The notes beneath the pieces were generated by a model. It was not told the DNA's origin. It was given only the letters and a program-made list of their open reading frames with translations, and did no database searches. Below, one piece after another: positions 26,735 to 30,525 of a stretch of DNA of 44,155 bases. The position numbers and the translations under genes were made by a program. Every line of letters begins with the position of its first letter. The stretch's first letter is position 1. Source of the stretch: a virus (Duplodnaviria; Caudoviricetes); the IMG/VR virus record IMGVR_UViG_3300020043_000309, positions 1 to 44,155 of that record. One strand, given 5' to 3'.

Positions 26735-28941
26735 TGACTGCAAAAGTCTTTGCCCTTGACACGAAATCTGGCATCCAGCGGGATGGAACTGTTTTTGACA
26801 AGCAGTTCTATAACGATGGGCGCTGGGTTCGTTTCCAGCGTGGAAGACCTCGGAAGATAGCGGGATATAGAGTTATCTCTAATCAACTGAGTGGGCCGTC
26901 CAGGGGCATTTGGGTCAATGCTCAGGACAGATTCAACTACATTTTTAGCGGCTACAGTGACGGATTGCAACAGCTTGTGATTGACGACAACGGCGTTGGC
27001 GCAGGCGTGTCTGACTTCACGCTGAGTAACTTCACTGCAAGTGCGCTTAACCTTTGGCAGTTTGATGGCTTTTACGATGTAGACGGATCTGGGAATGCTT
27101 CGTTGGTGGCGCATCCTGGGAGGAACTTGGGCGCAACAGATGCGACGGTAAATACACCAGTTCTGATTGGCGACATCAATGGGACTACGATGTCTCAGAT
27201 TGGTGTGTTTACTGACACAGCAACTACATCAAGTGGTTTGCCTACAGTGACTCTGGCGGCAACCAATCTGTTGATCGGTGCAGGGCAGACTGTTACTGGA
27301 ACTGGTATTCCTGCAAACACAACTGTTGTTTCTGTCTCCACGACGACGGTTACGCTATCCAACAATGCCACTGCCTCTGGTTCAGTGACCTTGACGTTCA
27401 ACAACAATGTTGAGGTTTCTGGCGGTGTTGTGACACTGCATCCGTATGTGTTTGTCTACGGGAACAATGGCCTGATCAGGAACTGCTCTGCTGGGAATGC
27501 GCAGGACTGGGTTTCCGCCGACGCCAATGAAGTTAACGTGGCTACAGGGAAGTTCGTTCAGGGGCTTCCAGTTCGTGGTGGTTCTAACTCTCCGAGTGGT
27601 TTGTTTTGGAGCTTAGACAGTCTTGTCAAAGTGAGTTACATCGGTGGTCAGGGGACACCGACTCAGTATTGGCGATACGACATCGTTTCAAGTCAGTCGT
27701 CCATTCTGTCTAGTCAGTCTGCGATTGAGTACGACGGGGTGTACTACTGGTGTGGTGTGGATAGATTCCTTCTGTACAACGGCGTTGTGAAGGAAATCCC
27801 CAACGACATGAACCAGAACTACTTCTTTGACAACCTAAATTATGCGCAGCGTCAAAAAGTATGGGCTACGAAGGTTCCTCGTTTTGGTGAGATTTGGTGG
27901 TTCTATCCGCGGGGCGACTCCGTTGAGTGCAACGATGTGATCATCTACAACATCCGAGAGAACACTTGGTATGACGCTGGACAGGCATTAGGTGCCAGAA
28001 GGTCTGCGGGATACTTCTCTCAGGTATTCGCCTTTCCTGTTGCTGCTGGATGTGATGTGTCCGAAGAAGTTGAAGTCACAACTGCAATAGTAAACGCGAC
28101 TTCTGGGAGCGATCTTCTGCTTCTAGACACCTACAACGTAGACGTTACTCTCGGTCTGATTATTTCAGGCATCAACATAGCCAGCGGCGCTACTGTCCAA
28201 GCCATTACCTCAAGCAACATAAAGACTCTTGGTGCGATTGTTGGGGGCTCTGGTTATCCAAACGCGATTTACACCAATGTTCCGCTTACAGGTGGTTCGG
28301 GTGCTGGAGCGCTGGCGACCATCACGGTTAGTGGCGGCTCTGTTACTACTGTGTCGGTAACTAATCCAGGCGCAGGTTATGAGAGTGGTGACTCACTGAG
28401 CGCAAGCAATACAAATCTCGGTGGCTCTGGAGCAGGTTTTGCTGTTCCTGTCTCTGCTATTTATGCACAAGGCATTGAGATGTCTTTGGTTGCAACAGGA
28501 ACAGGATCAAGCACTGCTACGTTCAAAACAGAACCAGATCTCATCAACATCTACCAGCATGAATTCGGCGTCAATTCTATTGACGGCACGAACGTGACGG
28601 CCATTGAGAGCTATTTTGAGACGAATGATATTGGATGGGTTTCTGGTGGGCCTTCTCAGCCGACAATGGAAGGTGCAAATCGTTGGCTGAGGCTTGAGCG
28701 CGTTGAGCCAGACTTCATCCAAGAGGGTGATATGTCTCTGATCGTGACTGGAAGGCCTTATGCTCAATCAGAAGATGTTGAGTCAAATCCCTATACGTTT
28801 GCCCCAAATACGAACAAAATTGACATGAAGGAACAGCGCCGTGAATTGCGTCTCAAGTTCGTGTCAAATGTGGCTGATGGTGACTATCAGCTAGGTCGCG
28901 TGATCCTGAGCGCGGACATTGGTGATGTCCGAGGTTATTGA
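26734..28941 (+). CDS. Putative tail body/nozzle protein (beta-propeller type) with inserted domains
   Basis: 735 aa; WVRFQRGRPRKI, YWCGVDRFLLYNG, EIWWFYP, IYNIRENTWY, RVEPDF. Low-complexity beta inserts (VTGTGIPANTTV; VTNPGAGY). Confidence 0.65.
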   Translation: MTAKVFALDTKSGIQRDGTVFDKQFYNDGRWVRFQRGRPRKIAGYRVISNQLSGPSRGIWVNAQDRFNYIFSGYSDGLQQLVIDDNGVGAGVSDFTLSNFTASALNLWQFDGFYDVDGSGNASLVAHPGRNLGATDATVNTPVLIGDINGTTMSQIGVFTDTATTSSGLPTVTLAATNLLIGAGQTVTGTGIPANTTVVSVSTTTVTLSNNATASGSVTLTFNNNVEVSGGVVTLHPYVFVYGNNGLIRNCSAGNAQDWVSADANEVNVATGKFVQGLPVRGGSNSPSGLFWSLDSLVKVSYIGGQGTPTQYWRYDIVSSQSSILSSQSAIEYDGVYYWCGVDRFLLYNGVVKEIPNDMNQNYFFDNLNYAQRQKVWATKVPRFGEIWWFYPRGDSVECNDVIIYNIRENTWYDAGQALGARRSAGYFSQVFAFPVAAGCDVSEEVEVTTAIVNATSGSDLLLLDTYNVDVTLGLIISGINIASGATVQAITSSNIKTLGAIVGGSGYPNAIYTNVPLTGGSGAGALATITVSGGSVTTVSVTNPGAGYESGDSLSASNTNLGGSGAGFAVPVSAIYAQGIEMSLVATGTGSSTATFKTEPDLINIYQHEFGVNSIDGTNVTAIESYFETNDIGWVSGGPSQPTMEGANRWLRLERVEPDFIQEGDMSLIVTGRPYAQSEDVESNPYTFAPNTNKIDMKEQRRELRLKFVSNVADGDYQLGRVILSADIGDVRGY

Positions 28942-28960
28942 TTCCCTGAAGGAGTAAATC

Positions 28961-29365
28961 ATGGCGAACGCCATTTATCCGAAGTACAAGGAAGTTATCC
29001 TTGGCGCAGCAACCAACACGGACTTACTGAGTGGGACGGTCAAGGTTGCGCTGGTTGATACGGGAACGTACACCTACAGCGCATCTGACCAATACCTGAC
29101 ATCTCTGACGGGTGTTGTGGGTACTGCTCAGACGATTGGCGGGCCTAAGACGGTGACGAATGGTGTCTTTGATGGCGCAGATGTAACCTACACATCGGTG
29201 ACAGGCTCCAGTGTTGAAGCATTGGTGATCTATGTAGACACAGGCACGGCCGCTACTTCACCGCTAGTAGCGTACATTGATACTGGTGTGACGGGCTTGC
29301 CGGTCACGCCCAATGGCGGCAACATAACAATTACTTGGTCAGTTTCGGGAATATTCTCGCTCTAA
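28961..29365 (+). CDS. Virion structural protein (first gene of the accessory module)
   Basis: 134 aa with AAGGAG RBS; GLPVTPNGGNITITW; its 3' end is duplicated at 30035-30061. Confidence 0.75.
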   Translation: MANAIYPKYKEVILGAATNTDLLSGTVKVALVDTGTYTYSASDQYLTSLTGVVGTAQTIGGPKTVTNGVFDGADVTYTSVTGSSVEALVIYVDTGTAATSPLVAYIDTGVTGLPVTPNGGNITITWSVSGIFSL

Positions 29366-29382
29366 GCCCTATAATCTAGGGC
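29366..29382 (+). promoter_or_regulatory. Hairpin overlapping a TATAAT box, directly upstream of the HNH start codon
   Basis: GCCCTA-TAATC-TAGGGC; TATAAT at 29370-29375, 7 nt before ATG 29383. Confidence 0.5.
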
Positions 29383-30036
29383 ATGAAAAGTACCCTGACC
29401 CGTAGTGAACAAGATGAACATGGTACATGGTGGTACATCCAGCGCGGAGGCACTCGACAGAGGGCCAAAGTCAAGGTTTGCCTATCCTGTGGCGACAGCT
29501 TTTTGGGCTATCCAACAGGCAGTTCGGATTACTGCTCCCCTGAGTGCTACCGCAAGAAATGTGGTCGATGCGGTGTTTTGTTTCATGCAAAAACCGTTCG
29601 CCACACGTATTGCTCAAACGAGTGCAAACTTGGATCGTTTAAGTGTGAAAATTGCGCCAAAACATTTGTCCCCAGTAAGAATGCTGCGGGTCGTTTCTGT
29701 AGCATTCAGTGTCATTACCAGTTCAGTTGCCCTGTTGGCACAATTCGTGATGCAGGCGCTGGGTACAAAATCATCAAAGTTCCTCCTGGCACCAAGGGGA
29801 CCAAGAAGAAATACGGCCCAGGCGGAAATCAATGGATGCTTGAGCATCGCTGGGTCATGCAGCAAAAACTTGGCAGGGAGCTTGGGCCAAAGGAAAGCGT
29901 CCATCACATCAACGGAAAGCGCGATGACAACAGGCCTGAAAACCTTGAACTTTGGAAGCGATCTCAGCCTGCTGGGGTTCGTGCTTCCGACTATCACTGT
30001 GCTGGATGTAAGTGCTTCACGCTTCCGCGTGAATAA
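29383..30036 (+). CDS. HNH homing endonuclease with N-terminal CxxC...CSxxC zinc-finger repeats
   Basis: Three CxxC/[YF]CSxxC units; EHRWVMQQKLGRELGPKESVHHINGKRDDNRPENLELW. Confidence 0.9.
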   Translation: MKSTLTRSEQDEHGTWWYIQRGGTRQRAKVKVCLSCGDSFLGYPTGSSDYCSPECYRKKCGRCGVLFHAKTVRHTYCSNECKLGSFKCENCAKTFVPSKNAAGRFCSIQCHYQFSCPVGTIRDAGAGYKIIKVPPGTKGTKKKYGPGGNQWMLEHRWVMQQKLGRELGPKESVHHINGKRDDNRPENLELWKRSQPAGVRASDYHCAGCKCFTLPRE

Positions 30037-30064
30037 TGCATCAGGCATCTTTGCACTCTAAGCC
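30035..30064 (+). repeat. Displaced copy of the 3' end of gene 28961..29365 (NASGIFAL-stop)
   Basis: AATGCATCAGGCATCTTTGCACTCTAAGCC versus TCAGTTTCGGGAATATTCTCGCTCTAAGCC at 29339-29368. Confidence 0.85.
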
Positions 30065-30099
30065 GTTTGAAAACTATTGCTGACCATAGGATGTAGACG

Positions 30100-30525
30100 A
30101 TGGCTGACAACGTAGGGTATACCCCAGGCTCTGGCGCGGTAATTGCGGCCGACGACATTGGTGGCGTGCTGCATCAGCGCGTAAAAATTGGCGTTGGCGC
30201 GGACAACACGGCGGTTGATGTCTCTGATGAAAACCCGATGCCTGTCAGCACGCAGGGGTTGGACATCTTGCGTCGCATCGCGGCGCTGCTCAAACCGCTA
30301 CAGCAAATCACAGGCGGGGGCTCTAATCGACTTTCTATTGACGTCAATAGCGGCACCGTCACTACGGTTGGCACAGTCACTACCGTCACCACCGTTACTA
30401 CGGTCAGCACGGTGAGCAACGTGGCTGCATCCACGCTGACCAACATTGCAAACGTCTGGGGTTTTGACACCGCCAAAGCGATATCTCGGCAGGCCTACAA
30501 TTCTGGCATTCGCGCAAGGATCTAA
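30100..30525 (+). CDS. Short fibre-like protein with (VTT)n repeats
   Basis: DVSDENPMPV and GTVTTVGTVTTVTTVTTVSTV. Confidence 0.7.
   Translation: MADNVGYTPGSGAVIAADDIGGVLHQRVKIGVGADNTAVDVSDENPMPVSTQGLDILRRIAALLKPLQQITGGGSNRLSIDVNSGTVTTVGTVTTVTTVTTVSTVSNVAASTLTNIANVWGFDTAKAISRQAYNSGIRARI

Follow-up and report, generated by a model that had tools for sequence, protein, structure and literature searches.

How can a nuclease gene enter a virion gene without an intron or an intein and leave that gene whole? This question is raised by one locus of a freshwater phage (Duplodnaviria; Caudoviricetes). The window, i.e., the whole stretch of 44,155 nucleotides analysed here, is the IMG/VR record IMGVR_UViG_3300020043_000309 from position 1 to 44,155, and all the features considered below lie on its + strand. 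A gene of a 134-aa minor tail/tail-tip protein (28961..29365) was found to carry an HNH endonuclease gene inserted eight codons before its stop, and it is kept whole by a substitute 3' end, S-V-S-G-I-F-S-L-stop (29339..29365), four codons of which are unseen in 79 related alleles without HNH. The reading frame of this host gene closes as W-SVSGIFSL and is followed by GCC, which confirms what the first-pass annotation had read there. A 17-nt spacer (29366..29382) contains a TATAAT hexamer at 29370-29375, a possible -10 box, 7 nt before the start of the 217-aa free-standing HNH endonuclease (29383..30036). Next comes an orphan, the putative native gene end N-A-S-G-I-F-A-L-stop (30035-30061), which together with GCC occupies 30035..30064, and then the downstream gene (MADNVGY..., 30100..30525). 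The orphan had been placed directly after the HNH stop codon; it does lie right behind the nuclease gene, but it overlaps the stop (30034-30036) by two bases, i.e., the first two orphan bases complete it. The two 27-nt copies of the tail differ at 11 positions, and their codons for S, G, I and F differ in the way described earlier.

This arrangement is not an assembly error, because the junctions recur in contigs from other runs, and the possibility of an artefact was ruled out on these grounds. The contigs cover 29329-30105 with 1 difference in run X1, 29322-30035 in run X4, and 29133-29427 and 29886-30084 with 0 differences in run X5, where the best-matching run may be the window's own source sample. 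In run X2, a 9-nt insertion polymorphism was observed at position 30373, within a Thr/Val repeat of the downstream gene.

The status of the host as a structural gene is well supported by homology. Its protein matches PHROG_644 (E 1e-29) and is 50% identical to Corndog gp63, described as a virion protein confirmed by mass spectrometry (PMC4351075). The structural model (pLDDT 92) matches the Bxb1 tail-tip chain 9d93_Ra (TM 0.71, E 3e-5), and homologs, often under the name of minor tail protein, were found in 445 GenBank phage records. In L056 (2089-2487) and in many of L012-L072, the host gene is immediately preceded by another, distantly related member of its family, a second paralog, after which no HNH gene was seen.

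Which of the two gene ends is native was determined by comparison with the best 80 of 457 host relatives found in viral contigs. HNH is absent from 79 of these closest homologs, hereafter called empty alleles (L040 and L059 are counted among them despite a 156-aa open reading frame), and one, L056, is occupied. The tail W/F-N-[APG]-S-G-I-F-[AQ]-L was found in 79 of the 79, in agreement with the W-N-A-S-G-I-F-like end expected of HNH-free homologs, and an ending of the SVSGIFSL type, named beforehand as contrary evidence, occurs in 0 of the 79. The orphan is nearer than the in-gene tail to 78 of the 79 empty alleles (minimum of 1 vs 9 differences) and differs at 1 position from the tails of L012 and L013. 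In eight close empty alleles, the host gene is directly followed by the same downstream gene as in the window, and these alleles run into the same DNA as the orphan does; the intergenic DNA and the start of the downstream gene are common to the window and L001, L002 and L004-L008. The orphan with about 170 nt behind it aligns gap-free to the HNH-free alleles L001 and L008, and this alignment has its first base precisely at the N codon of these alleles and extends into the next gene. Of 141 regions behind HNH genes unlinked to the host, 0 reached the peptide score between tail and orphan. Since the eight empty alleles continue into the same downstream DNA, it may be concluded that the downstream orphan is the native end and the in-gene copy is a foreign-looking newcomer, as had been proposed.

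The inserted gene itself has the features of an intact nuclease gene. Its HNH_3 domain (PF13392, E 2e-10, above the cut-off) is C-terminal, with the catalytic motif H174-H175-N177...N187 intact, and its N-terminal part consists of Cys-rich zinc-finger-like repeats, from which we infer a DNA-binding module. Eleven cysteines and the HNH residues are invariant among 77 aligned relatives. Values of pS of 0.75-0.87 and pN of 0.24-0.33 were obtained with four close relatives, where synonymous sites are saturated and non-synonymous ones are not, and the gene is evidently under purifying selection. The fold of the C-terminal domain weakly resembles I-HmuI (Z 5.4, rmsd 3.9, 76 residues), and a Foldseek search of the HNH model against the PDB found nothing.

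In our opinion, the HNH cassette is quite probably a homing element with a replacement gene end, of the type represented by the yeast WHO elements and the fungal mORFs. In a mixed infection, the nuclease would nick or cut an empty allele near the W/N junction, the predicted site extending from this junction through the G-I-F codons. Repair would then copy the cassette, using the gene body as left homology and the 27-nt orphan with any common downstream DNA as right homology, and the recipient's own gene end would become the new orphan. The orphan is likely to be a right-hand homology arm, and it is attractive in this role because the gene after the host is highly variable, with about 28 different gene starts among the 79 empty alleles by a rough count of first starts. 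The upstream copy would escape cleavage mainly by a change from ATY to ATA, and the orphan by the loss of the left half of the site.

Evidence that the cassette moves came from three other studies (X6, X8 and X15), in whose contigs a cassette at least 99% identical to that of the window stands behind a host stretch of about 85% identity. In run X6, at least 22 differences fall in 29209-29350 and at most 4 in 29351-30048; in run X8, 13 listed differences fall in 29320-29350 and at most 2 in 29351-30045. Near-identical cassettes in diverged flanks are consistent with recent homing, where X6, X8 and X15 are contigs only, have one common left tract, may represent one lineage and do not give the direction of transfer. 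These three variants keep N-A-S-G in front and have sequence in common with the window only from 29351; the part present in all near-identical cassettes thus begins at the ATA codon (29351-29365), and 29339-29350 varies. The insert had been delimited on the left at 29339, which holds for the allele of the window; as a fixed edge of the element, this position was ruled out by the cassettes of X6, X8 and X15. Because these variants read N-A-S-G, the change to S-V is dispensable and the left edge variable, and the ATA codon is kept in X6 and X8 because the tally accounts for all A changes.

Up to 30048, the orphan in X6 is identical to that of the window; at 30049 and 30058, it has the bases of L001-type alleles instead, which would fit a crossover within the orphan (one lineage, contigs only). 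In X6 and X8, deeper short contigs match the empty allele of L006/L008 and likely belong to co-occurring empty phages. Another X6 contig joins the S-V tail of the window to an L056-like spacer and start. No contig joining 29338 directly to 30035 was found in 8 runs, a result without information since contigs break at such branch points. Three loose ends after 29338 in X4 were considered as empty alleles and rejected: they start with the N-A codons, but their mixed consensus (agreement 0.79) contains ATA.

Occupied alleles are patchy among close phages and dispersed over the host phylogeny. A quick tree of the host protein without its last 12 residues, in which the empties were sampled from two subfamilies only, contains 22 occupied alleles among 109 rows and requires 10 changes, at least 6 of them forced by well-supported branches. 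Two pairs of occupied and empty alleles have identical trimmed host proteins. From about codon -22 to the stop, L281 and empty L278 differ in most codons, against 2.8% in the gene body. A point against the homing reading is that among the nearest empty-empty pairs, too, an excess of tail differences above 0.1 was found in 23 of 100, in a set unfiltered for aberrant ends.

The replacement ends are also marked by their codons. Within the S-G-I-F group to which the window belongs, the isoleucine of G-I-F is encoded by ATA in 7 of 7 occupied alleles vs 0 of 79 empty ones, and in L081 ATA is the sole codon of the last nine unseen in the 79 empties. A larger set comprised distinct hosts ending in [GKR]-I-[FYL]-x-[LVW], 17 occupied and 102 empty, after 55 duplicates, 4 short-flank rows and all other endings, including 15 distinct occupied loci, had been dropped. 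The difference between GC3 of the body and GC3 of the last 8 codons is +0.35 in the 17 occupied vs -0.05 in the 102 empty alleles (Mann-Whitney P 8e-8, codon-shift P values ignoring ancestry). This isoleucine codon is ATA in 10/17 occupied vs 7/102 empty alleles (gene-body ATA, 2/98 vs 5/644) and, where body GC3 is at least 0.5, in 8/15 vs 1/78. ATA is not a family-wide rule because 7 of the 17 occupied alleles lack it. The rarity of ATA suggested by the first-pass annotation was borne out for the 31 other genes of the window (37 of 629 Ile codons, 5.9%), but not for the ATA at codon 122, which is present in 10 of the 79 empty alleles too and was therefore ruled out as a mark of the element. 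I131 of the host is at least 90% conserved, for which reason a synonymous change would be a cheap way of escape, and the third base of ATA at the isoleucine of G-I-F is a candidate immunity base.

The same shift could have another meaning. The A/T-rich tail might serve the promoter (as an UP-like or -35 element) or the translation of a homing HNH, with immunity provided otherwise, e.g., by the insertion itself, a reading that we consider unlikely. It draws on the TATAAT that precedes the HNH start by 7 nt both in the window and in L056, because of which upstream promoter elements would fall in the tail, on the presence of a -10-like hexamer after the host stop in 4/17 occupied vs 5/102 empty alleles, and on the general direction of the shift toward A/T, which extends up to about 20 codons in L281. 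However, no -35 match is contained in the tail of the window, and a sigma-70 promoter scan of the + strand found no pair. In seven S-G-I-F loci, the same codon became ATA at spacer lengths of 17-65 nt, unlike a fixed promoter geometry. The upstream copy, in addition, rebuilds the full-length target, so that an enzyme active at this site would have to be kept from cutting it by some difference.

About 80 near-full-length relatives of the HNH protein were found. Profile scans covering 3/64 parts of the metagenomes and 10/64 parts of the viral contigs gave 174 distinct HNH loci, of which 32 have a host homolog upstream (scored with an iterated profile of the host family), including the 8 best-scoring loci and 22 of the best 33. 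An additional pattern scan gave no new locus, and tblastn of the HNH protein against 50,697 GenBank phages gave only partial matches to the HNH domain, none beside the host gene among the 40 matches listed of 87. When the HNH domain was placed on a quickly built tree, one weakly supported group took in 21 of the 29 host-linked rows, and the link requires 13 changes; since at least 3 of these are forced, this host gene may have been reached by more than one HNH lineage.

The same three-part anatomy was found in L056, which comes from the host-homolog set, and L081, which comes from the HNH search, with HNH proteins 63-64% identical to that of the window. The window, L056 and L081 have three different downstream genes, and their orphans differ in step with these genes. 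A clear orphan tail at the HNH stop is present in 6 of the 32 host-linked loci (the window, L056, L081, L163, L165 and L167; each 0/141 in the null set), with breakpoints about 6-11 codons before the host stop. L170 contains an orphan with a 1-nt deletion (6/141 in the null set), and none was detected in the other 25 host-linked loci; L251, a close relative, has a shifted tail and no clear orphan. Since 26 of the 32 host-linked relatives are without a clear orphan, the duplicate is not obligatory for the family. In fact, in the subfamily comprising L177/L263, L277 and L281, the cassette stands in place of the native tail, of the spacer and of the codons with which the next gene begins; it supplies a shifted 3' end to the one gene and a new 5' start to the other, and there is no orphan.

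These counts are also what speaks for a second alternative, according to which the 27 nt were duplicated in a single illegitimate insertion long ago, since when the orphan has persisted as a neutral relic and the tail has drifted, and HNH cuts elsewhere or is an accessory nuclease: most host-linked relatives lost the orphan or never had it, and that of L170 carries a deletion. We regard this explanation as very improbable. It is the orphan, and not the coding copy, that matches the empty alleles, which is the reverse of drift; orphans vary between lineages together with their own downstream genes; and a cassette at least 99% identical is found in flanks of about 85% identity.

Homologs of the host gene do have true group I introns at this place. 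RF00028 gave five matches in four of nine loci scanned, all in the last 25 codons of the host gene homologs (L333:1582-1928, L174:~1023-1310, L098:528-1239 and L224:929-1314). These introns interrupt the genes between GGD and I and between TWD and N, with U/...G boundaries in L333 and L098, and the TWD-N position corresponds to the W/N junction of the window and to the start of the L170 orphan. The intron positions may be taken as an independent pointer to the putative target site of HNH. L098 (two Rfam matches) is apparently interrupted three times, which leaves micro-exons of about 8 and 6 codons, and L224 (one match) twice. L098, L174 and L224 have a related HNH gene downstream besides the introns, a combination that resembles collaborative homing as described in PMC10448857. 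Between the host stop and HNH in L098 (~1280-1302), there is a short copy of the intron-less T-W-D-N-G junction, possibly a relic or else a site bound in the manner of an operator.

That the 696-nt insert of the window is itself removed at the RNA level as a self-splicing intron, or bypassed in translation with restoration of the native end, is hardly credible: the introns of the homologs, the length of 696 nt as a multiple of three and a host frame open from 29405 to 30061 would allow it, but no Rfam match up to E 1 was found in 28900-30300, although RF00028 finds the introns in homologous loci, HNH fills all but about 45 nt of the insert, U/...G boundaries are absent, the host reading frame has its own stop, and an overlapping frame of this length is to be expected (P 0.71) given the codon content, and neither L081 nor L251 has it open. 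The 218-codon open frame at 29405-30061, which overlaps HNH in the frame of the host and ends in the orphan, is consistent with chance. The claim that HNH was inserted in a virion gene as an intron-free and intein-free gene stands, with a separate reading frame behind the host stop and no Rfam match.

Homing with a replacement gene end, the reading preferred here, can be extended to a much broader proposal, which we put forward tentatively and consider possible rather than likely. Phages would carry widespread and so far undescribed HNH homing elements that track the 3' end of one tail-tip gene across deep divergence; the target would be common with group I introns, immunity would come from one synonymous base (ATY to ATA), the 27-nt orphan would be a portable right arm, and cuts would drive the exchange of tail modules from phage to phage, because the site is a hinge between the conserved tail-tip gene and a highly variable downstream module.

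The principle is known from two groups of eukaryotic elements. In WHO elements at FBA1 of yeasts, an endonuclease gene is preceded by a replacement 3' end that is resistant and followed by the displaced 3' fragment, which was proposed as the second homology region, and allele-specific cleavage was shown (PMC7282813, Coughlan et al. 2020). According to a preprint, 8 of 24 synonymous changes gave resistance, and its authors treat homing with a replacement end as a third category, rare and found in no elements but the yeast WHO (Osborne et al. 2026, bioRxiv 10.64898/2026.08.13.744650). Like WHO, the window has a replacement end that keeps the host reading frame whole and a displaced native end downstream, nearer to the empties, without splicing. 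The WHO nucleases differ in being LAGLIDADG/intein-like (HO/VDE-related) with a zinc finger, whereas the window has HNH_3 with Cys-rich repeats; the displaced fragment is about 400 bp in WHO and 27 nt here; the host is a eukaryotic nuclear enzyme gene in the one case and a phage virion gene in the other. Tandem clusters are known for WHO and none was seen at the window, and cleavage, shown for WHO, is predicted here.

Fungal mitochondrial mORFs, found in atp6 of Allomyces macrogynus and in atp6, atp9, cox2 and nad3 of Glomus, consist likewise of a foreign C-terminus, an endonuclease ORF and the native C-terminus, and the native C-terminus matches relatives better than the inserted copy does (PMC3630166, Beaudet et al. 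2013); gene hybrids of this kind in fungal mitochondria are also reported in PMC6279837. In contrast to the window, mORFs belong to organelle genomes and have tails of 50-240 nt, and some of their ORFs are in phase with the host, while the window HNH has its own start (PMC3630166). The element of the window works like the WHO and mORF elements and is a member of neither family.

Among phage nucleases, T4 MobE, the Seg family and the Skunavirus HNHEs also have neither intron nor intein and cut a neighbouring conserved gene, and their own genome was proposed to be spared via nucleotide polymorphisms (PMC2790892, PMC2988022). Unlike the element considered here, free-standing phage nucleases are described as intergenic or as splitting a gene into two polypeptides (PMC2988022, PMC2790892, PMC12724721), and no mention of a duplication was found in the texts of PMC2988022 and PMC2790892. 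The HNH domain is N-terminal in MobE and C-terminal in the window. The window HNH is 34-36% identical over residues 88-193 to the HNH in mycobacteriophage methylase genes. The ShiLan-domain HNH of phage methylases is similarly a non-splicing HNH inside a coding gene, but the frame of the methylase gene continues across all of its insert, whereas the gene of the window is closed by the substitute end (Arsenault et al. 2025, PMC11855218). A phage description of homing with a replacement end was not found in the literature searched, which was largely without subscription papers. What is added to the known principle is the family-wide link to a tail-tip gene, the evidence of movement in populations, the coincidence with intron sites and one testable base.

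If a phage HNH family does the same with 27 nt, the strategy would have arisen independently in another nuclease family and another domain of life. The way of free-standing nucleases into virion operons, which are tightly packed, would then become clear, and this would explain both the alien codon usage in the last codons of a virion gene and the coincidence of intron sites with the targets of free-standing nucleases. The system is also very small and convenient for testing: a single enzyme of 217 aa can be tried on many alleles that occur naturally as targets, and one base has been nominated.

Two other types of loci were observed in the course of the comparison. A different ORF of 156 aa with a C-terminal Cys/His cluster stands right after the host stop in L040:2908-3378 and L059:2908-3378; it gave no Pfam match, is without an orphan tail, and contains the motif WAAGIMEGEG, which we take to be LAGLIDADG-like. 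In L245, HNH is reduced to a C-terminal remnant behind a host gene with an extended C-terminus, as in a decayed element.
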